DNA of 64,000 bases, taken from the NCBI GenBank assembly GCA_050011535.1, contig JBEKIX010000002.1, positions 32,365 through 96,364 of the forward strand, read 5' to 3'. The position numbers and the translations under genes were made by a program. Below the pieces are notes generated by a model. That model did not search any database. It was not told the origin of the DNA and saw nothing but the letters and a program-made list of their open reading frames with translations. Every line of letters begins with the position of its first letter. Position 1 is the stretch's first letter. Positions 2,049 to 59,968 of this stretch are shown here, in pieces. Source of the DNA: Acidobacteriota bacterium (GTDB lineage Bacteria; Acidobacteriota; UBA6911).

Positions 2049-2726
2049 ATGGGAATTAACATAGTCGAACTGTGGAGTTCCATGGGCGTGGTTGCCAAAT
2101 TCGTGGTAGGCATCCTTGCTATCATGTCGGCCTATTCGATCAGCATCATGATCGAGAGATGGCTTACGTATCGTCAGGCGCGCAATCAGTCGCGCGTTTT
2201 CACCCCTGCGGTTGCCGAGTGCCTGAAGGAAGGCAAAATCGAGGAAGCGATCGCTCTTGGCGAGCAGAATAACAAGAGCCATCTCGCGAAGGTTCTGATC
2301 TCCGGGCTTCATGAGCTGCAGGCTCACGCCAAAAGCAAAGAGATTCCGGGCGAGACCATTGAATCTGCCAAGAGAGCCTTGGATCGCGCAACAGCCATCG
2401 GGATTTCCGATCTGAAGCGAGGTTTGGGTGGTTTGGCGACGATTGGTTCCACCGCACCGTTCGTAGGATTGTTCGGAACGACGGTCGGTATCATCAACGC
2501 TTTCCAGGGGATGAAGACCGAGGAAACCGCTGGAATCGCAGCTGTGGCCGGCGGTATCGCGGAAGCGTTGGTGACGACGGCATTCGGTCTGTTCGTCGCG
2601 GTTCCTGCGGTGTGGGCTTATAACGCCTTCACGAACCGGATCGAGACCTTTACGATCGAGATGGACAACTCGTCTTCCGAATTGATCGATTACTTCCTTA
2701 AGAAGCGGGGTCAGATCGGTGGCTAA
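2049..2726 (+). CDS. exbB: MotA/TolQ/ExbB proton-channel protein
   Basis: RBS GGAGG lies upstream. The protein has three TM segments and the conserved C-terminal region GLGGLATIGSTAPFVGLFGTTVGIINAF...AGIAEALVTTAFGLFVAVPAVWAYN. Confidence 0.85.
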   Translation: MGINIVELWSSMGVVAKFVVGILAIMSAYSISIMIERWLTYRQARNQSRVFTPAVAECLKEGKIEEAIALGEQNNKSHLAKVLISGLHELQAHAKSKEIPGETIESAKRALDRATAIGISDLKRGLGGLATIGSTAPFVGLFGTTVGIINAFQGMKTEETAGIAAVAGGIAEALVTTAFGLFVAVPAVWAYNAFTNRIETFTIEMDNSSSELIDYFLKKRGQIGG

Positions 2727-3135
2727 ACATATATCTACGGGCAAGGTAACCAGCGACATCAATGTCACGCCAATGGCTGACATTATGCTGGTGTTGTTGA
2801 TCATCTTCATGATCACCACGCCGTTGCTCCAGCAGGGAATCAGCGTGAATCTTCCCAAAGCCAAGTTCCCGCTGGAGGCGCCAGATGCGGACTCGAAAGA
2901 GGCTGTTGTGGTGGCCTTAGACCGGCAGGGGCGCGTGTATCTGGGAAAGAACCAGACAACGGAATCTGCCCTGCTGGATGCTCTGACCAAGCGCTTTGGC
3001 GGCGGCGAGATCAATAAGGTCATGTACTTGAAGGCCGACACGGCCGTACTCTATGGGCGCGTCGTTGAGGTCGTAAACGAGTGCCGCAAAACCGGTGTCG
3101 AACGAATCGGCCTAATGACGGAAAAAGAAAAATAG
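2719..3135 (+). CDS. exbD: biopolymer transport protein ExbD/TolR (copy 1)
   Basis: GTG start overlaps the exbB stop. Signature SDINVTPMADIMLVLLIIFMITTP is present. Confidence 0.8.
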   Translation: MAKHISTGKVTSDINVTPMADIMLVLLIIFMITTPLLQQGISVNLPKAKFPLEAPDADSKEAVVVALDRQGRVYLGKNQTTESALLDALTKRFGGGEINKVMYLKADTAVLYGRVVEVVNECRKTGVERIGLMTEKEK

Positions 3136-3355
3136 CAGCTGCGCCGGCGGCTCCTGGAGTAAGCCTCTCGTGGGAATCGCGCGGTGGTGCTTTCGTCACC
3201 ACGGCGCAGCAGTTTTTCTTGGGCCGGCTGGCTCTTCGCAATCGGCACGCCGAATGCTTGCTGCTTGTGCTGGCCCTATCGGCTGTGTCGTATCCACCAG
3301 TGGGTTATGTGCGGGACCGTAGTTTTAACGGCTGGCAGAAAGGAAGTGTTCTTCC

Positions 3356-3769
3356 ATGTCAATGGCGGTTGGTATCAACAAAGGCCCGAAGTCGGATATT
3401 AATATCACTCCCTACATCGATATCCTGCTCGTGCTTCTCATTATCTTTATGGTCATTACCCCGGTTCGGCAGCAGGACCTTGAGGTCAAGGTGCCACAAC
3501 CTGCTCAAGATGAGGGCAACAAGACGCCTCCACCTGCGGACGTGATCGTGGTATCGATGTCGGAAACTGCTCAGCTGGCTATTAATCAGGAGCCTACCTC
3601 CATCATAGAATTGGGATCAAAGCTCCGCGATATTTATAGCGCCCGGGCAAACAAGAACATGTTTATCAGCGCGAGCGCCAAGCTGCCTTACGGAGATGTC
3701 GTCAAGATCATCGACATCGCGAAAGGCGCGGGCGTGCTTGATGTGGGGCTTCTCACCGAACTGCGATAG
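3356..3769 (+). CDS. exbD: biopolymer transport protein ExbD/TolR (copy 2)
   Basis: Signature SDINITPYIDILLVLLIIFMVITP is present. The gene follows a 220-nt spacer that contains a hairpin and a T-tract. Confidence 0.8.
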   Translation: MSMAVGINKGPKSDINITPYIDILLVLLIIFMVITPVRQQDLEVKVPQPAQDEGNKTPPPADVIVVSMSETAQLAINQEPTSIIELGSKLRDIYSARANKNMFISASAKLPYGDVVKIIDIAKGAGVLDVGLLTELR

Positions 3770-3820
3770 GCGAGCAATCGGTCCGCTTCGCGCTATTACT
3801 GAAATTGTCTGGAGGCCATA

Positions 3821-4603
3821 ATGAGGGTCAACAAGAAGTGGCTTGTTATTTTTGCACTTGCGGCGATGATACCCCTTTCGGGCTGCGGCTTCGTCACGAA
3901 ACTCCGCGCTCGCGATAAGCTCAACAAGGGCGTCAAGGCGTTCGCGGAGCAGAAGTACGAGGAGGCCGCTAAACTGTTCGAAGATTCCATTGCGCTCGAC
4001 CCCGAGTTTAATGTCGCCAAGATGTATTTGGCCACTTCGTATACATCGCAATTCGTGCCGGGCTCTCCGGATCCAAAGAGCACGGAGATGGCCAATAAAG
4101 CCATCAAGACTTTTGAGAGCATCCTGGAGACTGAGCCCAGAAGTATTAATGCGATGCTGAGCATCGCCAGCCTTTACTATCAGCTCGACAATTCCGCGGA
4201 ATCGAAGAAGTGGTGTGGAAAAATTCAAGCAATCGATCCGACCAACGCAGAATCGCTCTATCGAGTCGCCGTGATCGACTACAACGACTCCTACAAGAAG
4301 ACCGGCATTCAAGGAGAAAACGTAGAATTCCTCACGACGGAAGATAAGCAGAAAACGCTCAGCGATATCCAGGAGGGGTTGGATTGCATCGAAAAGGCCC
4401 TGAAAATCAGGCCTGACTATTTTGACGCCATGGATTACGAGAATCTCCTCTGGCGAGAAAAAGCCAAGTTTGAAAAGGATGCCAAGGCCAGAGCCGAGTT
4501 GATTCGTAATGCGGATCTCATCTCGCAGAAGGCGCTGACAATGCACCTCAGGGCGGCGGAGGAAGAGGCCAAGAAACCCAAGAAACTTGCTCCTGGAAAA
4601 TAG
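3821..4603 (+). CDS. TPR-repeat lipoprotein (lipobox LSGC), last gene of the ton cluster
   Basis: Signal peptide MRVNKKWLVIFALAAMIPLSGCG is followed by TPR-like helical repeats. A CpoB/YbgF-like role in the cluster is inference only. Confidence 0.55.
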   Translation: MRVNKKWLVIFALAAMIPLSGCGFVTKLRARDKLNKGVKAFAEQKYEEAAKLFEDSIALDPEFNVAKMYLATSYTSQFVPGSPDPKSTEMANKAIKTFESILETEPRSINAMLSIASLYYQLDNSAESKKWCGKIQAIDPTNAESLYRVAVIDYNDSYKKTGIQGENVEFLTTEDKQKTLSDIQEGLDCIEKALKIRPDYFDAMDYENLLWREKAKFEKDAKARAELIRNADLISQKALTMHLRAAEEEAKKPKKLAPGK

Positions 4604-4755
4604 CCCTTCGCCGTATCAACTTTGCTTGCCTTGGAAGCCGCTGTGCTTCCGATGATTCCTGCTGGGGTACGCCATGAAAGCCCGTGTGGAGGGCAGGCGT
4701 ACCCCATTCCCTGCCTGCTCCTTTTCCTCTATAATAAGTCGTTAGAACGATCTGT

Positions 4756-6936
4756 ATGACTATGATCCGCTTCGAGGACCTTGCTGAGAAGGTGCTGCGC
4801 TATCACCCCGAGGCTCTGGAGTTGGTTCAGCGCGGCTATGTCGTATCCGCAAAGTTCCACAAAGGGCAATTGCGGATGAATGGCGAGCCTTATCTGACGC
4901 ATCCCCTTGAAGTCGCGAACATTCTTGCCGAACTCAAGATGGACGCGGTGACCGTCACTTCCGGTTTGCTTCACGACGTTCTGGAAGACACCCTCATATC
5001 TCCTGAAGAATTGCGCCGCCAGTTTGGAGACGAGGTTTACCAGATTGTCGACGGGGTCACCAAAATATCGCAGGTCTACTTCAGCTCCCGGCACGAGAAA
5101 CAGGCCGAAAACTTCCGGAAAATGCTGCTTGCCATGGTGGGGGACATCCGCGTGCTGTTTGTAAAGCTGGCCGACCGTCTCCACAATATGCGCACCCTGC
5201 AGTATCTACCCCCGGAGCGGCGCGAACGCATATCGCGGGAGACGCTGGACATCTATGTGCCGCTGGCACACCGCCTGGGCATGGGTCTCATTCGAGGAGA
5301 ACTGGAAGACCTGGCATTCAGCTTCCTCGATCCGGTCGCGTATCAGAACACCGTGTCTCTGATCGAAGCGCGTCGTGCGGTCAGTCAGGATTTCATGCAT
5401 GAAACCAAGAAAGCCATCGCCAGCGAACTGGCGGAGTACAACATTCCGGCACGCCTGGAGAGCCGCATCAAGAGGATTTATGGGGTCTACAATAAGATGC
5501 GCGTCCAGAAAATCAGCATTGATGAGGTCTTCGACTTCATTGCGATTCGCGTCATCACCGACACGGTCAAGAACTGCTATACGATACTGGGAATCCTGCA
5601 CAATCTGTGGAAACCTGTTCCCGGACGGATCAAGGACTATATTGCCATCCCCCGTCCCAACCTCTATCAGTCCCTGCACACTTCGGTGGTTGGGAAGAAC
5701 GGGCAGCCGTTCGAAATCCAGATCCGTACCCAGGAGATGCATAGAATCGCGGAGTTCGGCATCGCGGCCCACTGGAAATATAAGGAAGGGAAACTGGGTG
5801 TCGTGGAGGGCGAAGACCAAATCCAATGGCTCAGGCAGCTGATTGATTCCCAAAACGAGATCAGTGATCCTCGCGAGTTTCTCAGCAGCCTCAAGGTCGA
5901 TCTTTACCCGGATGAGGTCTATTGCTTTACGCCCATGGGTGAGGTTATCACCCTGCCACGCGGCGCTACTCCGGTCGACTTCGCCTACGCCATTCACACC
6001 CAGGTGGGGCATCACTGCGTCGGGGCAAAGGTCAATAGCCGGATCATGCCGCTTCGACACAAACTGAAGAACGGCGAAATCGTCGAGATTCTGACCTCCA
6101 AAGACGCAGGACCGAACAGGGACTGGCTGGCCTTCGTCAAGACAGCGCGCGCCCGTAATCGAATCCGGCACTGGGTCAATCAGCAGGAGAGGGAGGATGC
6201 CGCGGAGCTTGGAAAGAAATTGCTCGAAAAGCAGGCCCGCAGGTTCAAAACCAGTTGGAAAAAGATCCTGGGCATGCCCGAGCTTTCTCGAGTGTTGGCC
6301 GATCACGGAATTCAGAAGGCGGAGGATCTGTATCCCGCGGTTGGTTTTGGCAAGATTGCGCCGCGTCATATTCTGGCATCACTTTTTCCTGATCTTGCGC
6401 CTCCCGAGGAAACCCAGGAAAAGAAGTCTGCCATTGCCACCGTCGTCAAGAAGGTACTCGGCAGAGGCGAGGCTCCGATCACCGTTAAAGGACAGGACGG
6501 CCTGCTCGTGTACCGTGCGAAGTGCTGCAACCCGATCCGTGGGGATGAAATTGTCGGCTACATCACGCGGGGGAAGGGTATCTCCGTACACACCACGAAC
6601 TGTCCCAATCTTGTCAACTTCCTCGGGTCGGACCGCATGACGGATGTGGAATGGGTCGATGTTCAGGGCGACGAGATTTTCACGGTCCGGCTCGCCATAT
6701 CGATCGAGGACCGCCAGGGCATCCTTGCCGAGATCACGTCGGCAATCTCGAATCTCAAGACCAACATACGGGAGTCACGCTCAACCACGGGGGAAGGCGG
6801 CCTTGGGACGGTAGATTTGACGGTGGAAATCAATGACATCAAACATCTGCAGAAAATCATCAAGGTGCTAAAGGGCATTCGTGGTATTGACGATGTGGCG
6901 CGCGTGGCTAAGATTCCTGAAGAGGCTCACTACTGA
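4756..6936 (+). CDS. rel: bifunctional (p)ppGpp synthetase/hydrolase Rel/SpoT (HD, RelA_SpoT, TGS and ACT domains)
   Basis: HD motif LLHDVLEDT. Synthetase region includes ...RIKRIYGVYNKMR...IRTQEMHRIAEFGIAAHWKYKE. A TGS and a C-terminal ACT-like region (AISNLKTNIRE) follow. A TATAAT box lies at about 4725. Confidence 0.9.
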   Translation: MTMIRFEDLAEKVLRYHPEALELVQRGYVVSAKFHKGQLRMNGEPYLTHPLEVANILAELKMDAVTVTSGLLHDVLEDTLISPEELRRQFGDEVYQIVDGVTKISQVYFSSRHEKQAENFRKMLLAMVGDIRVLFVKLADRLHNMRTLQYLPPERRERISRETLDIYVPLAHRLGMGLIRGELEDLAFSFLDPVAYQNTVSLIEARRAVSQDFMHETKKAIASELAEYNIPARLESRIKRIYGVYNKMRVQKISIDEVFDFIAIRVITDTVKNCYTILGILHNLWKPVPGRIKDYIAIPRPNLYQSLHTSVVGKNGQPFEIQIRTQEMHRIAEFGIAAHWKYKEGKLGVVEGEDQIQWLRQLIDSQNEISDPREFLSSLKVDLYPDEVYCFTPMGEVITLPRGATPVDFAYAIHTQVGHHCVGAKVNSRIMPLRHKLKNGEIVEILTSKDAGPNRDWLAFVKTARARNRIRHWVNQQEREDAAELGKKLLEKQARRFKTSWKKILGMPELSRVLADHGIQKAEDLYPAVGFGKIAPRHILASLFPDLAPPEETQEKKSAIATVVKKVLGRGEAPITVKGQDGLLVYRAKCCNPIRGDEIVGYITRGKGISVHTTNCPNLVNFLGSDRMTDVEWVDVQGDEIFTVRLAISIEDRQGILAEITSAISNLKTNIRESRSTTGEGGLGTVDLTVEINDIKHLQKIIKVLKGIRGIDDVARVAKIPEEAHY

Positions 6937-6979
6937 CCCGTCGCAGTTGGCGATAGAAACCGATTCAAAGGAGTGCTTC

Positions 6980-7357
6980 ATGCGAGAAATCATCAAGACT
7001 GCGCAGGCCCCGGATCCGATTGGACCTTACTCACAGGCAATTCGCGCTAGTGGTTTAATCTTCGTTTCGGGACAGATCCCGATTGATCCGGCGACCAGTT
7101 CAGTGTCAGGCGGGGACATAGCGGTGCAAACGCGACAGGTCATGAGGAACCTCTCCGCGATTCTGGCGGCGGGGGCAAGTGGAATGGACAAAATCGTGAA
7201 GACCACCGTATTTCTGAGCAATCTGGACGATTTTCAGAAGTTCAACGAGGTGTACGCGGAATTCCTTGGAAGCTCGAAGCCGGCACGCGCAACGGTTGAG
7301 GTGTCCCGGCTCCCCAAAGGGGTCTTGATTCAGATCGATGCGATTGCTCTAGCCTGA
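6980..7357 (+). CDS. ridA: RidA/YjgF family reactive-intermediate deaminase
   Basis: AAGGAG RBS precedes the ATG at 6980; the ORF-track start 6881 is an upstream extension. The protein begins MREIIKTAQAPDPIGPYSQAI... Confidence 0.8.
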   Translation: MREIIKTAQAPDPIGPYSQAIRASGLIFVSGQIPIDPATSSVSGGDIAVQTRQVMRNLSAILAAGASGMDKIVKTTVFLSNLDDFQKFNEVYAEFLGSSKPARATVEVSRLPKGVLIQIDAIALA

Positions 7358-7364
7358 TCGCACG

Positions 7365-7441
7365 AAGGGGGCATTTCGCTTTTCCAACTCCCGGGCGGAA
7401 AGAACGGCCGCGAGACTGGAAAATCGGAATGCCCCCTTTTT
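7365..7441 (+). terminator. long-range hairpin plus U-tract downstream of ridA
   Basis: AAGGGGGCATT (7365-7375) pairs with AATGCCCCCTT (7428-7438) across a 52-nt loop. TTTTT follows. Confidence 0.35.
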
Positions 7442-7611
7442 GCGAAGATTCCGCCGTGCAATGAAATGTGGGCGTTAAGCCTTCGTCACTTTTCCGGAGC
7501 GCAGGCAACGCGTGCAAACGCGAACTCGCTTAACCGCACCCTTTTCCACAATGCGAACGCTTTGGAGGTTGGGATAGAACTTTCGTGAACGAACGTTGTG
7601 CGCGTGCGAAA

Positions 7612-7637
7612 CCGTGTGTCCGAACACGGGGCTTTTT
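7612..7637 (+). terminator. intrinsic terminator-like hairpin (CCGTGT-gtccga-ACACGG then GGCTTTTT)
   Basis: 6-bp GC-rich stem, 6-nt loop and a T5 tail on the + strand. No annotated + strand gene ends here. Confidence 0.45.
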
Positions 7638-7783
7638 GCGCAAGAATAACATTGCATCGGCATAAACCGTCTCCACTCAGAGGCCGTAATGCTATCAGTC
7701 GGGGCGCGGCCAGTCAACAGACAATGCGGGGTGCTCGGGCTGCGCTGACGCAGGCCTTCTTCAGGCGCTGCCGAGAGCACAGC

Positions 7784-8596
7784 TTATCCCACTAAGTCCT
7801 CGCCGCCGTCGATTCCGAGAACATTCCCTGTCATCCAGTTCGAATCGCAGGAAACCAGCGCGACAATAGTCCGAGCGACATCGTCGGGCGTTGTCAGGCG
7901 CTTCCCGGGATTAAACGAGAGAGCTTGCGCAAACATACGGTCGCTCCCGGGGATCTTCCGTGCCGCCGGTGTGTCGGTCACGCCCGCACGCAATGCATTG
8001 GCGCTGATGCCGTAGGGTGCAAGTTCAACCGCCAACTGCCTGACGTGAGCCTCGAGAGCAGCCTTCGCGGCAGAGACGGCTCCATAGCCCGGCCAAACGC
8101 GGTGTCCGCCGGCGCTGGTCATGGCAAAGATCTTGGCACCTTCTCTCAGCATACCCGTCGTATACAGATCCTGGACCCAGTAGACCAGGCTGTGCGCCAT
8201 CACGTCGAGTGTCATATTCATATCGGCCGTGCGAATGGCTTTTTCGCTTTCGGAGGAAATGTAGGGTTTTAGAGTGCCGAATGCCAGGGAGTGAAGTAGA
8301 ACCTCGATGCAACCGCCGCGCGATGGTTCACCGATCTCCTCGCGGCAACGCTGAATGACCTCGGCACGCCTGATGGGATCCGCGGCATTCACGTTGAAAA
8401 AGATGGCCTTTTGGTTCATGGCATGAATGTCGGAAAGGACCCGCTCGGCGGCTGCAAGCGTGGCACGCCTGTCCAGATGCACGCCGAAAACATGATAGCC
8501 GCTGCGAGCCAAGGCAAGGCTCGCGGCTGCGCCAAACCCGCTTGAAGCACCCAGGATGAGCGCCCATTTTTCTCGAGTCGAATTGTCAGCCGTCAT
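7784..8596 (-). CDS. SDR-family oxidoreductase (enoyl-reductase-like short-chain dehydrogenase)
   Basis: Start reassigned to the ATG at 8596, which has GGAGGA 5 nt upstream. Gly-rich dinucleotide-binding motif [12 protein letters not shown] and catalytic Y..K motif (YGAVSAAK) are present. The ORF-track N-terminal extension is rejected. Confidence 0.7.
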
Positions 8597-8776
8597 GATT
8601 CCTCCTTGAAAAGCACCCAAAATATTAGGGAGCGCGCAGCAGGATTGCAACCGGATTGCATCTCGAAGGTTGCGCGCGGTATCGACAGAGGTGTAAGATT
8701 TCTCGCTCACCGGAACCCATTGCGGGTTAGATATAGTGTTTGCCATTCAAACAGAGTAGCTCGTGGGAGAGGGATC

Positions 8777-9655
8777 ATGGAAACAGCAAAGATAGGGATT
8801 GTCGGCGTGGTCGGATCGGGCACGATGGGAAGCGGCATCGCTCAGGTATTTGCTCAAGCCGGCTATCTAGTGCACCTGTCGGACGTTCGCCAGGATCTTC
8901 TCGAGCGCGCTCTCAAGACAATTGAGAAAAGCCTGGATCGCTTCGTGCAAAAGGGCAGCCTTACCGTGCCGGATCGTAACTCGACCTTGAGCCGGATATC
9001 ACCGGCTCCGGGATTATCGGCTTTTTCCACGTGTGGCCTGGCTGTCGAAGCAGTGAATGAGAATTTCGCGATCAAGCGGGCGGTCCTGCAGGAGCTGGAT
9101 GCTATTTGCGAGCAGGATGCCATCCTGGCTACCAACACCTCGTCAATCTCCATTACCAAACTGGCTGCTGCAACCAAGAGACCGGATCGCTTCATCGGGA
9201 TGCACTTCATGAATCCGGTCCCACTCATGAAACTCGTAGAGATCATTCGTGGGCTGGAGACATCCGATGCCACCTGCCGACAAATCATGGACCTCGCGGC
9301 CGCACTTGGAAAGACGCCCGTGGAAGTGCGCGATTATCCCGGTTTTATCTCGAATCGGGTCCTCCTTCCCATGATCAACGAGGCCGTGTTTGCGTTGATG
9401 GAAGGCGTTGCCTCCCGCGAAGCCATCGATACCGTGATGAAGCTGGGCATGAATCATCCCATGGGACCATTGACGCTGGCCGATTTCATCGGGCTGGACG
9501 TGTGCCTCGACATCTTGCGCGTGATGCATGAAGGCCTTGGCGACCCGAAGTACCGGCCCTGCCCGCTCCTGATCAAAATGGTGGATGCCGGCCTGCTCGG
9601 GCGTAAAACAGGCCGCGGTTTCTATGATTATCGAGAAAAGGAAGGAAAAGCCTAA
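8777..9655 (+). CDS. hbd: 3-hydroxybutyryl-CoA / 3-hydroxyacyl-CoA dehydrogenase
   Basis: Begins [24 protein letters not shown] (NAD-binding GxGxxG). A 3HCDH C-terminal domain is present. ATG at 8777 is preceded by GGGAGAGGGA. Confidence 0.8.
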
Positions 9656-51030: not shown

Positions 51031-51588
51031 TCATGGCTCGGGGCTGTCAGGCGGAGGAGGCGGTGGCGGCAGAACGATCGGCGGTTCCGCGGCTGGCGCG
51101 TGGTGCGAGATCTTGCGCTTTTCGAAGATCGCGACTCCCAGAACTCCGCCCAACATTCCCATCACCGAAAACACCACCAGAAATAGCAAAGCGGAAAAAA
51201 CCATGAGAAGAGCCAAGGCGGTGCCTCCCGTCGGCATGGACGCGATGGCTTCGCGAAACGCGGGCGGAAGATTCGGAATATCGCCGAGGCTTCGTCGCGT
51301 CTCCTCGAGAATGCCCCCGCCGGCGCTGCGCAGAAGGAGCATCGGTATGCTAAACAGAATGTAGACCATTCCTCCGATGCTTCCCGTGAGCAAACCGAGG
51401 CCGGCGCCACTCCCCAGCGTCACCGCTGCCGGAGCGCTCTTTACGTAAAGGTTGGCAGCGAGTATGCCGCCGCCGATCACCCATGCACAGCAGACGCAGT
51501 TGAAGGCCTGGATCAAAGGGAGAGCGGAGAGTATCCCCAGCAGGATGCCGCCGATCAACGCCGGTTTCAGAATTCCATGATCATTCAT
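51031..51588 (-). CDS. hypothetical polytopic membrane protein with poly-Pro C-terminus
   Basis: Four predicted TM helices, ending ...LPPPPPPPDSPEP. The start overlaps the stop of the upstream DUF2085-like gene. Confidence 0.4.
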   Translation of the reverse strand: MNDHGILKPALIGGILLGILSALPLIQAFNCVCCAWVIGGGILAANLYVKSAPAAVTLGSGAGLGLLTGSIGGMVYILFSIPMLLLRSAGGGILEETRRSLGDIPNLPPAFREAIASMPTGGTALALLMVFSALLFLVVFSVMGMLGGVLGVAIFEKRKISHHAPAAEPPIVLPPPPPPPDSPEP

Positions 51589-52103
51589 GATGTGCCTCCC
51601 AGTGCGCCCATGCCTTGATGCTTCCTCCGAGCGTCTTCACTCAACTCGGCCAGTGCCGGCAATACAAGGGATGAGAGCATGGCACCAAAAAGCAAACCCG
51701 TAAGACAGCGACTGACAGGAGTATTGGCCCATATGCCGCTGAACTGCAGCATGGCATCTATCAGCAGAGGCGCAACACCGCAAATCACCCAAAGCCTCCG
51801 CAGGCGTGGCGATTGCAAAATGCTATTCCATGCAAAAGGGACAAGGGAGCCCAGCAACAGGCCAAAATAGATCCCCGAACAGCGATGACATACCGCCCAC
51901 GGATGTCCGAAAATTGCAAAAGACCGTGCCGGGATCTGATGACAGACCGGCGAAAACAGCGCGTACAGCAAGGCTGCGGCCCACTTGTGTCCACTTGCTT
52001 GAAGCAGCGGGGCTGCGAGAAATGCGATGCAGACGCAGATCCAGAGGACTACAGCAGAGGTTCGAATGGATAGCGGAATCGTGCGCGGCCCGGAGTGTTT
52101 CAT
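51585..52103 (-). CDS. DUF2085-like small membrane protein (CxxC-containing)
   Basis: The ATG at 52103 (MKHSGPRTIPLSIRTSAVVLWICV...) is used rather than 52244. Contains VCHQIPARSF...HPWAVCHRCSGIY. Confidence 0.45.
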   Translation of the reverse strand: MKHSGPRTIPLSIRTSAVVLWICVCIAFLAAPLLQASGHKWAAALLYALFSPVCHQIPARSFAIFGHPWAVCHRCSGIYFGLLLGSLVPFAWNSILQSPRLRRLWVICGVAPLLIDAMLQFSGIWANTPVSRCLTGLLFGAMLSSLVLPALAELSEDARRKHQGMGALGGTS

Positions 52104-52358
52104 AGACGAGCCGGCATTATACCCGACTGTACGGCGGGTTTTCAAAAGCGTACCGCATGCAAGAACAATCGTCGTCTCAAGGCAACAAGGCGTCTGAATA
52201 CTATACGTATCATACGAACGGCTTAGGAATAAAAATGATTTCATCTATGAGCCGCCATTTTCCCTTGCTACGACGGCAGCCGTGAGCAGTCAGAATGCGT
52301 TTTTCACGCGATTCCAGCGGGTGAATTAACGCAGCCCGAAGCCTCAGGTTCCACAAGC

Positions 52359-52448
52359 TTTTGTATAAACAACTGGTACTGGCACTAAATCTTGTATAAA
52401 ATCTGGAAATACTACTTGACAGTATATTTTGATTTTATTATACAAAAG
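52359..52448 (+). promoter_or_regulatory. AT-rich promoter (TTGACA-17-TATACA at 52416-52444) flanked by three copies of a TTGTATAAA motif (two direct, one inverted)
   Basis: cTTTTGTATAAacaaCTGG at 52359-52376 and cTTGTATAAAatCTGG at 52391-52406. The inverted copy TTATACAAAAG at 52438-52448 overlaps the -10. RBS GGAGAGG is at 52457-52463. Confidence 0.55.
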
Positions 52449-52467
52449 GGGACATTGGAGAGGTTGG

Positions 52468-53490
52468 ATGCGAGTCGGACTGACATATAACTTGAAGCGT
52501 GGCGAACCTGAAGAGGGGCAGGAACCTCCAAGTAGCAGCCGGGAGGCTCAGGCAGAGTGGGACGAGCCGGAAACCGTCCATGCGGTCATAGATGCCATAC
52601 GGGAACGCCACGAAGTCCTGCCGATTGACGCCGCAGAAGATCCCTACAATGCCTTGCGCGAGGCGCGGCCCGACATTGTATTCAACATGGCGGAAGGAAC
52701 ATTCGGACCCTGCCGTGAAGGTCACATTCCCTCGATTCTCGAGTTTCTGAACATCCCATATACAGCCAGCGACCCATTGACGCTGAGTGTCTGCCTCGAC
52801 AAGTCGCGTGCCAAGGAGATCCTCGCGTATCATGCGCTGCCGACGGCCCGCTTTCGTGTTGTTTCCAGCGTGGAACCTTCGTTCAACACCCTGCACTTTC
52901 CACTTATGGTGAAGCCGCTCTTTGAGGGTTCGAGCATGGGCATCCGGAACGATTCGGTGGTTCAGACACACCAGGAGCTGCACGCCAAGGTGGAGTGGGT
53001 CGTGCGGCGATTCCATCAGCCGGCCATTGTGGAAGAGTTCCTGTCGGGACGAGAGTTCACGGTTGCCATCCTGGGAAACGGCGTGGAAGCCCGGGCACTC
53101 CCGATGGTTGAGGTGCGGTTCGACTCGCTGCCGGCAGGGGTGAATCCCATCTATTCTTATGAAGCCAAGTGGGTATGGGATCAGAGTTCCAAACCGCTTG
53201 AGATTTTTAGCTGTCCGGCGAAGATAGACGAAAAATTGCGAGCGGCGATCGAGCGCATCTGTCTGGAGGCTTATCGAATCCTGAGATGCCGGGACTGGTG
53301 CCGTATCGACGTACGCCTCGATTCAGCGAACCGTCCGCACATTCTTGAATTGAATCCGCTTCCCGGAATTCTTCCGCGGCCGGAGGACAACTCCTGCTTT
53401 CCGAAAGCGGCTCGGGCGGCGGGCATGTCGTACAACCAACTGATCAACGAAGTCCTTGACATTGCTTGCCGGCGGTACGGAATCTCCTGA
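52468..53490 (+). CDS. ATP-grasp ligase of the D-Ala-D-Ala ligase family (copy 1)
   Basis: RVGLTYNLKRG N-terminus. Ddl-like central and C-terminal motifs FPLMVKPLFEGSSMGI, EEFLSGREFTVAILG, RIDVRLDSANRPHILELNPLPG. ATG at 52468. Confidence 0.75.
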   Translation: MRVGLTYNLKRGEPEEGQEPPSSSREAQAEWDEPETVHAVIDAIRERHEVLPIDAAEDPYNALREARPDIVFNMAEGTFGPCREGHIPSILEFLNIPYTASDPLTLSVCLDKSRAKEILAYHALPTARFRVVSSVEPSFNTLHFPLMVKPLFEGSSMGIRNDSVVQTHQELHAKVEWVVRRFHQPAIVEEFLSGREFTVAILGNGVEARALPMVEVRFDSLPAGVNPIYSYEAKWVWDQSSKPLEIFSCPAKIDEKLRAAIERICLEAYRILRCRDWCRIDVRLDSANRPHILELNPLPGILPRPEDNSCFPKAARAAGMSYNQLINEVLDIACRRYGIS

Positions 53491-54536
53491 TGGCACGATC
53501 AGACTGCATTATCCTTTATAACGCCTCTACCGTCAGGCAGATGCCCTCTTCGGAAGAGAAGATCTATCCGGCAAACCTCCTGCGCGAAGAGGCCGGCGCC
53601 ATCGAAGAGAGTTTGCGCGAGCTCGGCTATGCGCCTTTAGTGCTTGCCATCGATTACTTCACGAAAGATCTCGTGGCAACGATTCAGCGCGTCGCTCCCA
53701 AGTTCATCTTCAACTTGTGCGAAGAGCTTCAGGGAGACTGCGAACTGGAGATGTGTATCGCCGGATTATTCGAGCTCATGAACATTCCGTACACGGGCTC
53801 GAGACCGTTGGCGCTCGGTCTGGCGTTGAACAAATTCCGCGTCAAACAGGTGCTGCGTGCCGCCGGCATCCCTGTGCCGCGAGGCTTTCTCTGCCCGATC
53901 GGACAGCAGCTCAAACCCCGGGCTCTGGGCCGTTTTCCTGTTTTCGTGAAGCCGGTCCACGAGGACGCGAGCCTAGGAATCAACGCCCACTCGGTCTGCC
54001 ACGATTTCACACAGCTCGAGAGACAAGTCTCATACATCCATCATGTTTATAACCAGGATGCGCTCATCGAGGAATTTTTGGAGGGCAGGGAGTTCAATGT
54101 TTCCATTCTGGGCGGACAGATCGCTCGGGTGCTCGCAATCTCCGAGATCGATTTCAGCAGCATGCCTGATGGCGAACCAAGAATCGTGAGCTATCGTGCA
54201 AAGTGGGACGAAGAGAGTAGCGTCTTTCAGTGCAGCGTTCCGGTCTGTCCCGCGGAGATCCCTCACCGCCTCGAAAGCCGGATCAAGAGCATCGCGATGC
54301 GTAGCTTCCAATGTGTAGGGTGCCGTGACTACGCCAGGGTGGATATGCGCACGGATTCCCTTGGGAACGCGTGCGTGATGGATGTCAATCCTAATCCGGA
54401 TCTTTCTCCGCACGCGGGATTCTTCCGCGCGGCGCGGGCGGCGGGCATGACTTACACTGACATGGTCTCGCACATCACTCAATCCGCATTGGAGCGAGTG
54501 ACAAAGGCTCCCTCGACGGCATATGTCTTCTCCTGA
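53490..54536 (+). CDS. ATP-grasp ligase of the D-Ala-D-Ala ligase family (copy 2)
   Basis: ATGA overlap with copy 1. Motifs FPVFVKPVHEDASLGI, EEFLEGREFNVSILG, RVDMRTDSLGNACVMDVNPNP. Confidence 0.75.
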   Translation: MARSDCIILYNASTVRQMPSSEEKIYPANLLREEAGAIEESLRELGYAPLVLAIDYFTKDLVATIQRVAPKFIFNLCEELQGDCELEMCIAGLFELMNIPYTGSRPLALGLALNKFRVKQVLRAAGIPVPRGFLCPIGQQLKPRALGRFPVFVKPVHEDASLGINAHSVCHDFTQLERQVSYIHHVYNQDALIEEFLEGREFNVSILGGQIARVLAISEIDFSSMPDGEPRIVSYRAKWDEESSVFQCSVPVCPAEIPHRLESRIKSIAMRSFQCVGCRDYARVDMRTDSLGNACVMDVNPNPDLSPHAGFFRAARAAGMTYTDMVSHITQSALERVTKAPSTAYVFS

Positions 54537-55023
54537 CTCTCATATACACTCGATTCGCAATCTGGAACCGCGCGATCGCGCCGCGATTGCGAACATCGTG
54601 CAAAGTGTCGGCAATTTCAATCAGGCAGAGATCGAGTGCGCTCTCGAACTGGTCGACGCATGCCTGAACGATACCAATCAGAAGGACTATCGGATCGTCG
54701 TGGATGAGATCGCTGGAGAAGTCTGTGGCTATGCATGCTGGGGACTGGCTCCGCTTACCAAAGGAACATTTGATCTTTATTGGATCGCCGCGCATCCCGG
54801 AGCTCAGGCACGCGGCGTCGGACGCGCCTTGATGGCGCACGTTGAAAACCAGGTGCGCGCGGAGAATGGCAGGCTCCTCATAATTGAAACTTCCTCCAAG
54901 GAATCATACGGGAATACCGTGGGATTCTATCGCCGCTTGGGATATGAAGAGGCGTCGCGAATACGGGATTTCTACGACGCGGGTGACGATAAGCTGATAT
55001 TTGTAAGGAGATTTTCCCGGTAA
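54523..55023 (+). CDS. GNAT-family N-acetyltransferase
   Basis: Acetyl-CoA-binding motif A region HPGAQARGVGRALMAHVE. 166 aa. Overlaps the copy-2 3' end by 14 nt. Confidence 0.75.
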   Translation: MSSPDSHIHSIRNLEPRDRAAIANIVQSVGNFNQAEIECALELVDACLNDTNQKDYRIVVDEIAGEVCGYACWGLAPLTKGTFDLYWIAAHPGAQARGVGRALMAHVENQVRAENGRLLIIETSSKESYGNTVGFYRRLGYEEASRIRDFYDAGDDKLIFVRRFSR

Positions 55024-55038
55024 GGAGAATTGTTGTCC

Positions 55039-56124
55039 ATGAAACAGTGGATGCTTGACCTGCGCAACAGCGTCACCAATGGGGAAACGGTCTGCGAGGA
55101 CTTCGACGCCGAAAAGGATGAAATCGACGTCGTCCGCGATGTCTATCCAATGCGGATTCCCCGTTATTACTACAACCTGATCCGCGAGAAGGGGGATCCC
55201 ATCTGGATGCAGTCGGTCCCCTCGATCCAGGAGCTCCAGGACATGGACGCTCCCGAGGATCCGCTTCATGAGGATGAAGACAGCCCGGTCACCCGGCTTA
55301 CCCACCGGTATCCAGACCGCGTCCTTCTGCTGATCACAGACCGCTGCCCCATGTATTGCCGGTTCTGCACACGCAAACGAATGGTGGGACGAACGAGCGA
55401 TATTACGGAGCGCACCATCGCAATCGGTATCGAGTATATCCGCGCTCACAAGGAAATCCGCGATGTCCTGCTCTCGGGCGGCGACCCGCTGATGGTCAGC
55501 GACGAAAAGCTCGAGAGCATTATATCGAGGCTGCGTGAAATCCCTCACGTCGAGATCGTACGCCTGGGAACCAGATTCCCTTGCGTTCTCCCGAGCCGGA
55601 TTACGGACGAGCTTTGCAACATGCTCAAGAAGTACCATCCGATATTCGTCAATACACACTTCAACCATCCGCGCGAACTCACTCCGGAAGCCAGAGGCGC
55701 GTGTGAGCGTCTGGCAAACGCGGGCATACCCGTCGGTTGTCAGACCGTGCTGATGAAGGGTGTCAACGACGATCCTGAGGTGATCAAGGAGCTGATGCAC
55801 AAGCTCGTGATGGCCCGCGTGCGGCCGTATTACCTCTACCAGACCGATCTCACGCGCGGCACCAACCATTTCCGCACACGTGTTGAGATGGGGCTGCAGA
55901 TCATCCAGGCACTCCGAGGACACACGAGCGGATTTGCAGTCCCCCAATTCGTCATCGATGCTCCCGGCGGCGGCGGCAAGATTCCCTTGATGCCCGAGTA
56001 TGTTGTGGGCTTCGACGAAAAGGAAATTGTGCTCAGAAACTTCGAAGGCAGACTCTTCCGTTACCCGCAACCCACGGAAGAGTATGTTCGCGATGTGCGC
56101 GAAATCGAAGTGATCAACTTCTAG
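55039..56124 (+). CDS. lysine 2,3-aminomutase family radical-SAM enzyme, short form (KamA/EpmB-like)
   Basis: CPMYCRFCTRKRMVG (CxxxCxxC) plus KamA-family blocks LLSGGDPLM, VRLGTRFP, FVNTHFNHPREL, GIPVGCQTVLMKGVNDD, RPYYLYQTDL. AAGGAG lies 11 nt upstream. Confidence 0.85.
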   Translation: MKQWMLDLRNSVTNGETVCEDFDAEKDEIDVVRDVYPMRIPRYYYNLIREKGDPIWMQSVPSIQELQDMDAPEDPLHEDEDSPVTRLTHRYPDRVLLLITDRCPMYCRFCTRKRMVGRTSDITERTIAIGIEYIRAHKEIRDVLLSGGDPLMVSDEKLESIISRLREIPHVEIVRLGTRFPCVLPSRITDELCNMLKKYHPIFVNTHFNHPRELTPEARGACERLANAGIPVGCQTVLMKGVNDDPEVIKELMHKLVMARVRPYYLYQTDLTRGTNHFRTRVEMGLQIIQALRGHTSGFAVPQFVIDAPGGGGKIPLMPEYVVGFDEKEIVLRNFEGRLFRYPQPTEEYVRDVREIEVINF

Positions 56125-56134
56125 CGATTGCAGG

Positions 56135-56222
56135 TTGACGATTGACGATTGAAAGCCGGGCAATGCTCCCCGCCCCTGAGCCCGCCAGCTTTCAATCGTC
56201 AATCTGAGATTGTCTGTTTTTT
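56135..56222 (+). terminator. 17-bp perfect-stem hairpin (GATTGACGATTGAAAGC ... GCTTTCAATCGTCAATC, 31-nt loop) containing tandem TTGACGA repeats, with a T6 tract 12 nt downstream
   Basis: Arms lie at 56140-56156 and 56188-56204. TTTTTT is at 56217-56222. Confidence 0.45.
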
Positions 56223-56364
56223 CAATTGCCGCACCGGTCGCCCGTACGCTGGGGATCGAGTAACATTCCAGCAACATTGGCTTGCCTCAGCCGCGACAGG
56301 CTGGTAATCTTGCCCCGTCATTTCCGGGAAATCAAAGACGCAATCGAGTCAAGATGGGGAACGT

Positions 56365-58011
56365 ATGAAATTTATATTTGTGACGGGAGGCGTGCTTTCG
56401 TCGCTTGGAAAGGGGCTGGCCAGCGCTTCGATTGGATGCCTGTTGGAAGCGCGCGGATACAAAATCAATTTCCTCAAACTGGATCCCTACATCAATGTCG
56501 ATCCGGGTACGATGAGCCCGTTTCAGCACGGCGAAGTCTATGTCACCGACGATGGCGCCGAGACCGATCTGGACTTGGGACACTACGAGCGCTTCACCAC
56601 TGTGCGCTTGACGCGTGACAATAACTCGACGACCGGAAGAATCTACCTCAATGTGATCGAGAAGGAACGCAAGGGCGAATTCCTGGGCAAGACCGTACAG
56701 GTCATTCCGCACATCACTAACGAAATCAAAAACACGATTCGCCGCGTAGCACAGAATGTCGATGTCGCAATCGTTGAGATCGGCGGGACCGTAGGAGACA
56801 TTGAAGGTCTGCCCTTCCTGGAATCGATCCGCCAATTGAGGAATGAGGTGGGTCGTGAAAACTCGCTGTTCATCCACCTGACGCTTGTGCCCTTCATCGG
56901 CACGTCGGGTGAATTGAAAACCAAGCCGACACAGCACAGCGTCAGGGAGTTGCGAGAGATCGGTATTCAACCCGACATTCTGCTCTGCCGCACAGACCGG
57001 CTGTTGCCGCGCGACATCAAGGCAAAAATCGCACTGTTCTGCAACGTTTCCGAAAAAGAGGTGATCACTGCTCTCGATGTCAAAAATATATATGAGGTTC
57101 CGCTGGTTCTCCACAGCGAAGGACTCGATGGCGCTGTCGTGCGCTACCTGAATCTTCCGGCGCATGAACCCGATTTGAGCCCTTGGGAAAATCTGATTCA
57201 CCGACATCAGCATCCGCAGGATCTGGTGCGCATTGGCATCGTCGGCAAGTATGTGGAATATGAGGATTCCTATAAGAGCCTGAATGAGGCACTTTACCAT
57301 GGTGGATTGGCACATCGTGTGGAGGTCGTCCCCAAATGGATCGAATCCGAGGGACTCCTGGACGAGACGCTGGATGAGCAACTCTCGGAATACGATGCCA
57401 TCCTGGTTCCGGGCGGGTTCGGCAAACGGGGCATCGATGGTATGCTGCGCGCGGTCAGGTTCGCGCGCACGCGCAAGGTGCCGTTCTTCGGCATCTGCCT
57501 GGGAATGGAATGTGCGGTGATCGAATTTGCACGCAGCGTCTGCGGGCTGCAGGCCGACAGCTCTGAATTCGATGCGGCCGCGCCCCATCGCGTTTTTTAC
57601 ATGCTGCGCGAACTGCTGGGCACGGATATCATGGGTGGAAACATGCGCCTGGGCGCCTTCCCATGTGTTCTCGACGAGGACTCTCTCGCCTATCGGGTCT
57701 ATGGGAAAAAGGAAATCTCCGAACGACACCGCCACCGTTATGAGTTCAATCGGGAATATGAGGATATTCTTTCCAGTTACGGCATGAAGTTTTCGGGGAA
57801 TTCGCCCGACCGCAACTTTGTTGAAATGATGGAACTGCCAGGACACCCGTGGTTCCTGGGTTGTCAATTCCATCCCGAATTCAAATCCAGGCCCCTGGAG
57901 CCTCATCCTCTGTTTGCCGGCTTTATCGGCGCTGCGCTGCAGCATCGGTTGGAACGAAAGTCGGTGCAGCGGGCGCCGCGCGAAGTGGAAGTCAAGGATG
58001 CCCGAGCCTAG
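56365..58011 (+). CDS. pyrG: CTP synthase
   Basis: [18 protein letters not shown]-terminus. A glutamine amidotransferase domain with GICLGME is present. Confidence 0.95.
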
Positions 58012-58035
58012 AATCCAGCACTGCAGCGAAACCTC

Positions 58036-58860
58036 ATGAATCCGGTCACGATTGGCAGCTTGAAACTGAGTCGCGGCGGGCCACCGTTTTTCGTCGCTGG
58101 ACCATGCGTGATCGAGAGCGAAAAACACTGTCTCAAGATCGCTGAAAGACTGGCGGCAATCGCGGAGCGAAGCCGCATCCAACTGATCTTCAAGGCCTCC
58201 TACGATAAAGCCAACCGCACATCGGCCGGCTCTTTTCGCGGGCCGGGTCTGGCAGAAGGACTGCGGATCCTCGAAAAGGCGCGCGCCGTCAGCGGGCTTC
58301 TCATTCTGAGCGACGTGCACGAATCCGCGCAGATCGGCGCCGCAGCGCAGGTCCTGGATGTTCTTCAGATTCCAGCGTTTCTCTGCCGGCAGACAGATTT
58401 GATTCTCGCCGCTGCGCGCAGCGGCCGCGCCGTCAATCTCAAAAAGGGCCAGTTTCTCTCTCCTCTGGAAATGCGCAACGTTCTTGAAAAGGCGCTGTCG
58501 ACAGGTAATCGCAACATTCTGTTGACCGAGCGTGGAACTTTTTTTGGGTACAATAACCTTGTGGTCGACTTTCGTTCTCTCGTCATCATGCGATCGTTCG
58601 GGCAACCGGTGATTTTTGATGCCACCCATAGCGTGCAGACTCCGGGCGGGGCAGGCGACCGGTCCGGTGGACAATCTGAGTTCATTCCTCCTCTGGCGCG
58701 CGCAGCCGTAGCTGCAGGAGTGGACGGGCTTTTTTTCGAAGTGCACGATCATCCCGAGAGAGCGTTATCGGATGGACCCAACGCGCTTCGTTTGCGCTCA
58801 TTTCCGCGGCTCGTGCAGGATCTGCTCGAGATTCACGCCACAGTTTGGAGAAAATCATGA
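58036..58860 (+). CDS. kdsA: 3-deoxy-8-phosphooctulonate (KDO-8-P) synthase
   Basis: FFVAGPCVIESE...FKASYDKANRTS. Confidence 0.9.
   Translation: MNPVTIGSLKLSRGGPPFFVAGPCVIESEKHCLKIAERLAAIAERSRIQLIFKASYDKANRTSAGSFRGPGLAEGLRILEKARAVSGLLILSDVHESAQIGAAAQVLDVLQIPAFLCRQTDLILAAARSGRAVNLKKGQFLSPLEMRNVLEKALSTGNRNILLTERGTFFGYNNLVVDFRSLVIMRSFGQPVIFDATHSVQTPGGAGDRSGGQSEFIPPLARAAVAAGVDGLFFEVHDHPERALSDGPNALRLRSFPRLVQDLLEIHATVWRKS

Positions 58861-59893: not shown

Positions 59894-59968
<75 letters not shown>

Follow-up and report, generated by a model that had tools for sequence, protein, structure and literature searches.

A conserved four-gene cassette joining a lysine 2,3-aminomutase-type enzyme, two Ddl-like ATP-grasp ligases and an acetyltransferase: a candidate pathway to an acetylated, beta-lysine-containing solute

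What would a bacterium build with a lysine 2,3-aminomutase-type radical S-adenosylmethionine (SAM) enzyme, a small acetyltransferase and two different ligases resembling D-alanine--D-alanine ligase (Ddl), all encoded side by side? The question is raised by a 64-kb stretch of Acidobacteriota DNA (contig JBEKIX010000002.1; hereafter the window, which is the part of the host genome analysed), in which open reading frame (ORF) analysis places four co-directional, closely packed + strand genes at 52468-56124. An earlier note, made from the sequence alone, had read these genes as an operon for a candidate uncharacterised ligation and acylation of a beta-amino acid. The operon itself proved real, those of the note's refuting conditions that sequence comparison could address all came out in its favour, and we consider the odds to lean, somewhat beyond even, towards a regulated small-molecule cassette whose product is a solute built around beta-lysine, N-acetylated and of di- or tri-peptide-like size. 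The genes, referred to below as G1 to G4, are as follows.

G1: 52468-53490, + strand; Ddl-like ATP-grasp ligase 1, 340 amino acids, from ATG 52468 to TGA 53490.
G2: 53490-54536, + strand; Ddl-like ATP-grasp ligase 2, 348 amino acids, from ATG 53490.
G3: 54523-55023, + strand; small GNAT acetyltransferase of the 2R7H family, 166 amino acids.
G4: 55039-56124, + strand; KamA-family radical-SAM/pyridoxal phosphate (PLP) 2,3-aminomutase, 361 amino acids, like lysine 2,3-aminomutase (LAM) and AblA, C-terminally short.

The packing is as tight as had been described, and translational coupling is probable: G2 and G3 overlap by 14 nt and 15 nt separate G3 from G4, both as noted before, and the junction of G1 and G2, previously given as an ATGA overlap, is in fact a 1-nt TGATG overlap (TGA at 53488-53490, ATG at 53490-53492). 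The start codon of G1 is unchanged across 13 aligned acidobacterial loci; that of G4 has an AGGAGA about 10 nt upstream, and an alternative TTG start at 55030 would give a protein of 364 residues. The NCBI records for the four proteins (MGD0307802-805) carry the names 'D-alanine--D-alanine ligase', 'ATP-grasp domain-containing protein', 'N-acetyltransferase' and 'KamA family radical SAM protein', which are generic or probably wrong, and none of the four matches an anti-phage defence model in PADLOC.

A first part of the answer comes from other genomes. Relatives of G1 were sought with G1-specific peptide patterns in one genome per species, a sampling rather than a full survey, and more than 555 genome loci were found to carry them. 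Gene arrangements were then scored in the best 80 of these loci by tblastn with all four proteins (individual loci are cited below by L numbers), with the following outcome.

G1-G2-G3-G4: 62 loci, including 3 with split matches (frameshift or insertion).
Cassette cut by a contig end: 8 loci.
G4-G1 only: 5 loci, Nitrospinota.
G2-G3-G4-G1: 1 locus, Nitrospinota.
G1-G2-G3, no adjacent KamA: 3 loci.
G1-G2-G4, no detectable GNAT: 2 loci.

These rows total 81 rather than 80 because one of the G4-G1 loci is also close to the end of a contig. The neighbourhood is thus conserved, 62 of the best 80 loci having the order of the window and the commonest exception being a cassette cut by a contig end. Host labels among the 80 comprise Acidobacteriota, Bacteroidota/Ignavibacteriota/Kryptoniota, Nitrospinota, KSB1, Deltaproteobacteria and Planctomycetia. 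Elsewhere the four are found together in other orders, as in Desulfovibrio (including D. mangrovi), a Woeseia metagenome-assembled genome (MAG) and six further metagenome contigs, most of them taxonomically unassigned, where the order is KamA-G1-G2-(deacetylase)-GNAT; with Desulfovibrio and the Woeseia-type Gammaproteobacteria included, the four families are found together, in differing gene orders, in at least seven bacterial phyla. Clustering of the flanking ORFs of the 80 loci returned no fifth gene common across phyla, and the flanks consist of lineage-specific housekeeping neighbours such as RecG, DnaG, PriA, a cation diffusion facilitator (CDF) transporter, DUF2085 and PyrG. As such, the unit consists of four enzyme families that have been kept together through rearrangements, and this is strong evidence for one shared pathway.

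The likely entry point to such a pathway is G4, which has the Pfam domains Radical_SAM and LAM_C and scores 318.9 bits against the KamA family model TIGR00238 (cut-off 199.2). Its best specific NCBIfam model is AblA (TIGR03820), at 492.7 bits and under the equivalog cut-off of 525.4, with a match that spans model positions 8-363 of 417 and lacks the C-terminal part. The scores against the glutamate aminomutase model (421.6, cut-off 650) and the arginine aminomutase model TIGR04468 (361.9, cut-off 600) lie further below theirs, and that against the EpmB model TIGR03821 (238.4) is far under its cut-off of 369.3. The match to the LAM of Clostridium subterminale (2A5H) reaches 415 bits over 344 residues, and G4 keeps all lysine-, PLP- and Fe-S-binding residues of the clostridial enzyme. 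When G4 was aligned with 71 KamAs of related cassettes (72 sequences, 2A5H numbering), the CxxxCxxC cysteines C125, C129 and C132, together with R134, D293, D330 and the PLP lysine K337, were invariant in all 72. In LAM, R134 binds the alpha-carboxylate of lysine; D293 and D330 reportedly hold its epsilon-ammonium group, their places being taken by Lys and Asn in glutamate 2,3-aminomutase, as Ruzicka and Frey are said to have described in 2007. Since both of these Asp residues are kept, G4 is not of the glutamate type; nor is its sequence EpmB-like. Taken together, the conserved residues suggest that the most likely reaction of G4 is the conversion of free L-lysine to beta-lysine.

The earlier note had called this enzyme short (362 residues) and EpmB-sized. 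Its shortness stands, at 361 residues, and its sequence is LAM/AblA-like. G4 stops about 15 residues past LAM position 369 and is without the C-terminal multimerisation and Zn-site region; the Zn ligand Cys268 is lost in the cassette KamAs, with D, N, K or E in its place. Because the Desulfovibrio versions are longer, by an N-terminal extension, and yet have the same C-terminal end point, the family trait of the cassette KamAs, as judged from the alignment, is the missing C-terminal domain and not overall length.

The two ligases are the part of the cassette for which the AblA/AblB precedent has no place. Both G1 and G2 match only Dala_Dala_lig_C in Pfam, without the Ddl N-terminal domain PF01820, and both fall below the NCBIfam Ddl cut-off of 243 (G1 at 208.7, G2 at 155). 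The pair is 30-31% identical to E. coli DdlB (G1 31%). G1 is a well-conserved paralogue, 57-83% identical to its orthologues across phyla, and G2 is a divergent one that is fused to a GNAT in many lineages; the two are 35% identical to one another and yet each is nearer to its own cross-phylum orthologues, which argues that the duplication is old and that the copies are non-redundant. When 86 sequences of G1 and 75 of G2 were aligned with DdlB (DdlB numbering), K97, K144, E180, E187, K215, R255, D257 and N272 proved invariant in all of them, and E270 is kept except for a D in 4 of the 75 G2 sequences, the window's G2 among these. The residues of the D-Ala pocket have fared differently. H63->E and Y216->W are common to both proteins; G1 retains S150, S281 and also E15, which belongs to an invariant AEWD motif, and it departs from Ddl by L282->C, by E68->R and by an acidic insertion of 4 residues ahead of S281; the further changes in G2 are S150->A, S281->A, L282->G and G276->D. 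The sequences therefore lead one to expect two ligases that are probably active and that differ from Ddl, and from each other, in specificity.

These residues also bear on the simplest account of the two genes, namely that they encode ordinary or alternative peptidoglycan dipeptide ligases of the Ddl/Van kind. The NCBI name of G1, its identity to DdlB and the retention of all catalytic residues would suit that account, but the sub-threshold scores, the missing N-terminal domain match, the altered pockets, the lack of a mur/fts context and the conserved linkage to KamA and GNAT all speak against it, and we hold it to be highly improbable. As the earlier note had suspected, then, these ATP-grasp proteins are most probably not ordinary Ddl, and no third Ddl-like gene lies within the 64-kb window.

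A KamA-family enzyme without the C-terminal domain also brings to mind EpmB, and with it a tagging of macromolecules independent of EpmA, in which beta-lysine would be ligated to, extended and acetylated on a protein (elongation factor P (EF-P) or another translation factor) or a cell-envelope polymer. The flanking housekeeping genes (PriA, RecG, DnaG, PyrG and LepA) fit such a role, as does an efp gene 2.3 kb downstream of KamA in L001 (11969-12535; 44% identity to E. coli EF-P). However, G4 is far from the EpmB threshold, the solved structures that match G1 and G2 by sequence are all Ddl/Van-type small-molecule ligases, and the flanks of the 80 loci yielded no conserved candidate target gene. 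In a tblastn search with an E. coli EF-P query, which did not extend to epmA, no efp was found in the window, and of 91 loci only L001 itself had one within about 6 kb; this neighbour is probably coincidental. We regard macromolecule tagging as decidedly unlikely.

The acetyltransferase G3 is the least informative of the four by family models: its Pfam matches are to generic GNAT families only, the best named NCBIfam match is RimI at 41 bits (cut-off 86), and an NCBIfam scan at E <= 0.01 returned no AblB (TIGR03827) model. Its closest solved relative is PDB 2R7H (E = 3.7e-32, about 43% identity), an orphan structural-genomics entry described as 'putative D-alanine N-acetyltransferase of GNAT family', on which we found no paper in the literature and whose name was apparently borrowed from the Ddl-like genes beside it. 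A search with the 2R7H sequence led to a 99% identical protein of Desulfovibrio alaskensis G20, encoded after a sigma-54 activator gene, a KamA gene and two Ddl-like genes. 2R7H is thus a member of the G3 family from a KamA-ligase-ligase-GNAT cassette, and its host operon differs from that of the window in gene order and in the adjacent sigma-54 activator. The SpoIIE phosphatase near the G20 cassette has been named Dde_3047 (PMC8836040), and from this we infer that the GNAT is Dde_3044 and the rest of the cassette Dde_3040-3043.

The pairing of KamA with a GNAT had been likened to ablA/ablB; the logic of that pathway holds for the pair, and the homology does not extend to G3, which is not AblB. 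It could nevertheless be supposed that the operon serves plain N-epsilon-acetyl-beta-lysine osmolyte synthesis in the manner of AblA/AblB, with the Ddl paralogues unrelated to it, a supposition favoured by AblA being the best NCBIfam match of G4 and by the presence of a GNAT. With no AblB match for that GNAT, with ligases linked to KamA in every gene order seen, and with the 32 fusions of G2 and GNAT described next, this is very unlikely.

How the four enzymes divide the work is suggested by the ways in which they are paired and fused. In the five Nitrospinota loci listed above, G1 accompanies KamA, and G2 and G3 are missing. When G3 served as the query of an exhaustive HMMER search, 105 representatives came up at E <= 1e-30, and 32 of the 150 best GNAT representatives are fusions of roughly 390-620 residues in which a Ddl-like domain comes first and a G3-type GNAT makes up the C-terminal part. 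By score, the ATP-grasp part is closer to G2 than to G1 in all 32, and one of the fusions sits in a three-gene operon, KamA-G1-(G2-GNAT). As G2 and the GNAT are fused in 32 representatives, they would share a substrate molecule, and it is reasonable to postulate that the two form one functional unit. The fusions probably account, too, for a naming error: JGI gives some stand-alone GNATs the name 'D-alanine--D-alanine ligase', apparently carried over from ATP-grasp-GNAT fusions; the same name stands on the G1 record MGD0307802.1, and this label is likely a systematic over-annotation. Some G3-type GNATs (representative proteins P0296 and P0333) carry a class-I SAM methyltransferase domain in the same polypeptide, and in L076 a methyltransferase gene (8731-9243) follows the GNAT; some lineages may add a methylation step.

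From these observations a route can be proposed. In a first step, to judge by residue conservation, G4 would turn free L-lysine into beta-lysine (3,6-diaminohexanoate). In a second, G1 would join beta-lysine to a second amino acid or amine by way of an acyl-phosphate; G1 is assigned to this step because it stays with KamA where G2 and G3 are absent. Thereafter, as the fusions suggest, G3 would N-acetylate a free amine with acetyl-CoA and G2 would add a further amide, and acetylation and second ligation could follow one another in either order.

A hint as to the position of the acetyl group comes from a deacetylase of family PF00850 (histone-deacetylase family), the gene for which joins four of the cassettes, those of L083 (D. 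mangrovi), L084 (Woeseia) and L086 and L088 (unassigned metagenome contigs), in two forms.

GNAT-PF00850 fusion gene: L083, 8629-10386; L086, 6268-8004; L088, 6250-7980.
PF00850 deacetylase domain only, without a GNAT part: L084 (Woeseia), 6505-8001.

The N-terminal GNAT of the fused form shows no more than remote kinship to G3 (25% identity, E = 0.003). Members of PF00850 hydrolyse N-epsilon-acetyl-lysine and acetylpolyamines, and the presence of such a gene within a cassette implies a cycle of acetylation and deacetylation. Because these deacetylases join some of the cassettes, the acetyl group may, by analogy, sit on a terminal alkyl amine, for example beta-lysine's epsilon-nitrogen; in the lineages concerned it would probably be removable, for recycling or as a protecting group.

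The same genes lend themselves to a catabolic or detoxifying route, in which lysine, beta-lysine or a polyamine would be acetylated and ligated as a transient handle, much as putrescine is handled by gamma-glutamylation in the Puu route, or along the lines of the kamA-yodP-yodQ operon of Bacillus subtilis. Apart from the deacetylase genes within four cassettes, this route can draw on the amino-acid permeases that adjoin the L089 cassette, on polyamine genes directly upstream in L076 and L041, and on sigma-54 control, typical of nitrogen and amino-acid catabolism, which is seen or implied in several loci. But the cassette has no conserved companion gene for downstream catabolism, be it for an aminotransferase, a dehydrogenase, a CoA-transferase or another such enzyme, two ATP-consuming ligations would be costly, and the window's own cassette is without a deacetylase. 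On balance such a route is unlikely.

Several observations weigh against a beta-lysine-containing acetylated solute as the product, and they concern both its chemistry and its role. The substrate of G4 is deduced from residues shared with LAM; EpmB, too, uses lysine, and another basic amino acid such as arginine is conceivable as the substrate. The N-terminal region of G2 aligns poorly with DdlB, such that its amine-binding residue is not readable, and the assignment of G1 and G2 to their steps draws on gene pairing and fusion only. An adjacent KamA is missing in L018, L038 and L076 and no GNAT is detectable in L012 and L026, and because of such loci the pathway may be modular, or may use other inputs. 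Transporters of the major facilitator superfamily (MFS) or amino-acid permeases flank the cassette in L086, L088 and L089, which could mean that the product is exported. Finally, many of the carriers come from non-saline soil and groundwater, which disfavours a classical osmolyte role.

As to what an acetylated beta-lysine peptide would do for the cell, we put forward an inducible cytoplasmic stress or compatible solute, tentatively and in the knowledge that the chances of this lie well short of even. The wider reading as a regulated cassette finds support in conserved promoter and operator-like boxes in the acidobacteria, and in sigma-54 promoters, an adjacent enhancer-binding protein, or both, elsewhere. 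The spacer upstream of G1 is 224 nt long and is the AT-richest part of the region; as the earlier note had observed, the control region is AT-rich, with a GC content of 0.42 at 52200-52499 against about 0.58 around it. Its features, from an alignment of the window's spacer with those of 12 acidobacterial relatives (13 loci), are given here with the hairpin that follows the operon.

Box 1, candidate operator: 52352-52366, + strand; CACAAGCTTTTGTAT, from the upstream alignment and from direct and inverted repeats.
Box 2, candidate operator: 52383-52397, + strand; CACTAAATCTTGTAT, with an ATCTTGT core common to box 1 (direct repeat D1).
Sigma-70-type promoter candidate: 52416-52444, + strand; TTGACA (52416-52421), 17 nt, TATACA (52439-52444).
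Operon-end hairpin: 56140-56222, + strand; 17-bp perfect stem 56140-56156 / 56188-56204 with a structured loop, then T6 at 56217-56222.

In the relatives box 1 reads CACAAGATTTTGTG, an imperfect palindrome CACAA-N4-TTGTG. Across the 13 loci the invariant alignment columns are C115, A117, T122 and G124 in box 1 and C146, A150, T151, T153, G155 and T156 in box 2, the invariant cores of the two boxes being CACAAG-N-TTTTGTG and ATCTTGTG. The CTTGAC of the promoter and the TA of its -10 hexamer are invariant as well, and the -10 overlaps TTATACAAAAG, in which the box-1 core recurs in inverted orientation (repeats I2 and I3). The promoter had been described as near-consensus, which is right for the perfect -35 hexamer and too generous for the -10, which matches at only 4 of 6 positions; because it does so and ends in A, a consensus scan missed it. 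The acidobacterial conservation nonetheless lends comparative support to a real promoter with operator-like sites. An Rfam search of the AT-rich leader region found no riboswitch or other known RNA at E <= 1.

A second mode of control appears in other carriers. Canonical sigma-54 promoters (TGGCAC-N5-TTGC, following the GG-N10-GC rule) lie about 166 nt upstream of G1 in L005, L009, L011, L012 and L013, and others are found 112 nt upstream of KamA in L083 (D. mangrovi) and 352 nt upstream of the cassette in L086 (an unassigned metagenome contig); in Desulfovibrio a gene for a sigma-54 enhancer-binding protein is directly upstream of the cassette. The window and its closest relatives, L001-L004, are without a sigma-54 promoter and keep the sigma-70-type one only. 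A scan requiring GG-N10-GC found nothing upstream of the window's G1, and a candidate there, TGGCAC...TTGT at 52380-52395, was rejected, its TTG being one base off that rule.

The upstream spacer is also where a ribosomal precursor might be sought, were the cassette a microviridin- or graspetide-type system for a peptide made by the ribosome and modified after translation (RiPP), with two ATP-grasp macrocyclases, an N-acetylating GNAT and radical-SAM tailoring. A set of two ATP-grasp enzymes and one GNAT does mimic MdnB/MdnC/MdnD, and this resemblance is what speaks for such a system. Still, the spacer holds only chance ORFs of 22-48 amino acids, none with conserved context, there is no plausible precursor ORF in or beside the operon, the ATP-grasp proteins are Ddl-type and not RimK-type, and KamA keeps the residues for the alpha-carboxylate and epsilon-amine of free lysine, all of which makes a RiPP origin improbable in the extreme.

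At the other end of the operon, the 17-bp hairpin noted before is present as a perfect stem, within repeat arms of 20 nt that are 95% complementary. The 111-nt stretch 56122-56232 folds with a minimum free energy of -43.4 kcal/mol (z = -5.4; 0 of 200 shuffled sequences were as stable). Since the T6 run begins 13 nt past the stem, this is not a textbook intrinsic terminator.

Some neighbouring features may be recorded here. Divergent from the same AT-rich spacer, at 51031-52244 on the - strand, are genes for a DUF2085 membrane protein and a 185-residue membrane protein without family match; they adjoin the cassette in 8-9 acidobacterial loci only and have no evident link to it. Two antisense ORFs on the - strand, 54904-56277 (457 amino acids) over G4 and 56332-58752 (806 amino acids) over pyrG/kdsA, in all likelihood reflect base composition and do not code for protein, and they ought not to be annotated as genes. 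A tRNA-Gly gene (anticodon CCC) lies at 59894-59968, after the PyrG-KdsA-KdsD block downstream of the cassette. In other genomes, two metagenomic contigs unrelated to each other have a csrA gene no more than 2-3 kb from the cassette (L087, 2728-2931; L088, 10612-10869). In L076, a Deltaproteobacteria MAG, genes for a deoxyhypusine-synthase-like protein, an agmatinase-like protein and a pyruvoyl arginine decarboxylase (3113-5855) stand directly upstream of G1-G2-G3, and a pyruvoyl arginine decarboxylase gene (2565-3107) precedes the cassette in one Nitrospinota locus, L041; these polyamine genes could point to a polyamine acceptor, or could be chance synteny.

Set against known systems, the cassette is built from familiar parts in an unfamiliar assembly. 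With AblA/AblB of methanogens and some bacteria it has in common a LAM-type aminomutase and an acetyl-CoA-dependent GNAT-superfamily enzyme in one operon, but G4 does not reach the AblA equivalog cut-off and is without the C-terminal 55 or so residues, the GNAT is of the 166-residue 2R7H type, and two ATP-grasp ligases are obligatory partners. The nearest parallel to the second half of the route is Ngg/AsnO, where Ngg is responsible both for the N-acetylation of glutamine and for the peptide bond in the osmolyte N-acetylglutaminylglutamine amide (NAGGN) (PMC8070244). Here too, GNAT acetylation and an ATP-dependent peptide bond are combined in one unit without a ribosome or a non-ribosomal peptide synthetase (NRPS), and the G2-G3 fusions, like the 14-nt overlap of these genes in the window, mirror Ngg. 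The differences are that no Ngg-like family is among the NCBIfam or Pfam matches of the cassette proteins, that no AsnO-type amidotransferase is conserved near the cassette, that the fusions run from ATP-grasp to GNAT, and that the cassette has a second ligase and a dedicated aminomutase for a beta-amino acid.

To Ddl/Van ligases, G1 and G2 are related by fold, by ATP-grasp catalytic residues and by the 30-31% identity to DdlB, and they depart from them in the replaced pocket residues, the acidic insertion of G1, the sub-threshold scores and the absence of a cell-wall gene context. G4 resembles EpmB as a C-terminally short KamA-family enzyme acting on lysine; unlike the EpmB/EpmA system, it is LAM/AblA-like, has no efp in the window, and would be followed by an ATP-grasp ligation rather than one by a lysyl-tRNA synthetase (LysRS) paralogue. 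A looser likeness is to the mycosporine-like amino acid pathway, which is likewise encoded by a four-gene cluster and in which two different ATP-grasp enzymes, MysC and the Ddl-like MysD, add amino acids successively to a small core; there the core is 4-deoxygadusol, and neither a radical-SAM enzyme nor a GNAT takes part.

All four kinds of enzyme are known, then, and AblAB and Ngg are partial precedents, but no characterised pathway is known to have this composition. Full-text searches of the literature yielded no paper on the cassette, including by the locus tags Dde_3040 to Dde_3047, among which the only match was the neighbouring phosphatase Dde_3047; a paper on the sigma-54 regulome of D. 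vulgaris does not mention the cassette genes. The proposal that the four-gene combination is uncharacterised stands to the extent that no such pathway was found, and needs the qualification that the combination was not wholly unseen, its GNAT family having an orphan structure in 2R7H.

If this reading is true, hundreds of species make an undescribed, beta-lysine-based acetylated peptide by a pathway that is non-ribosomal and free of NRPS, and these carriers belong to poorly studied but abundant groups, among them Acidobacteriota, Ignavibacteriota/Kryptoniota, Nitrospinota, KSB1, Desulfobacterota and marine Woeseia. It would add two new substrate specificities to the Ddl branch of the ATP-grasp enzymes and give the orphan 2R7H a function. 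The recurrent, and probably mistaken, annotation of G1 as 'D-alanine--D-alanine ligase' in public records is also corrected. As Desulfovibrio alaskensis G20 carries the cassette and transposon libraries exist for this strain, a tractable host is at hand, and the cassette, built from known enzyme kinds, offers a widely distributed and experimentally tractable lead.

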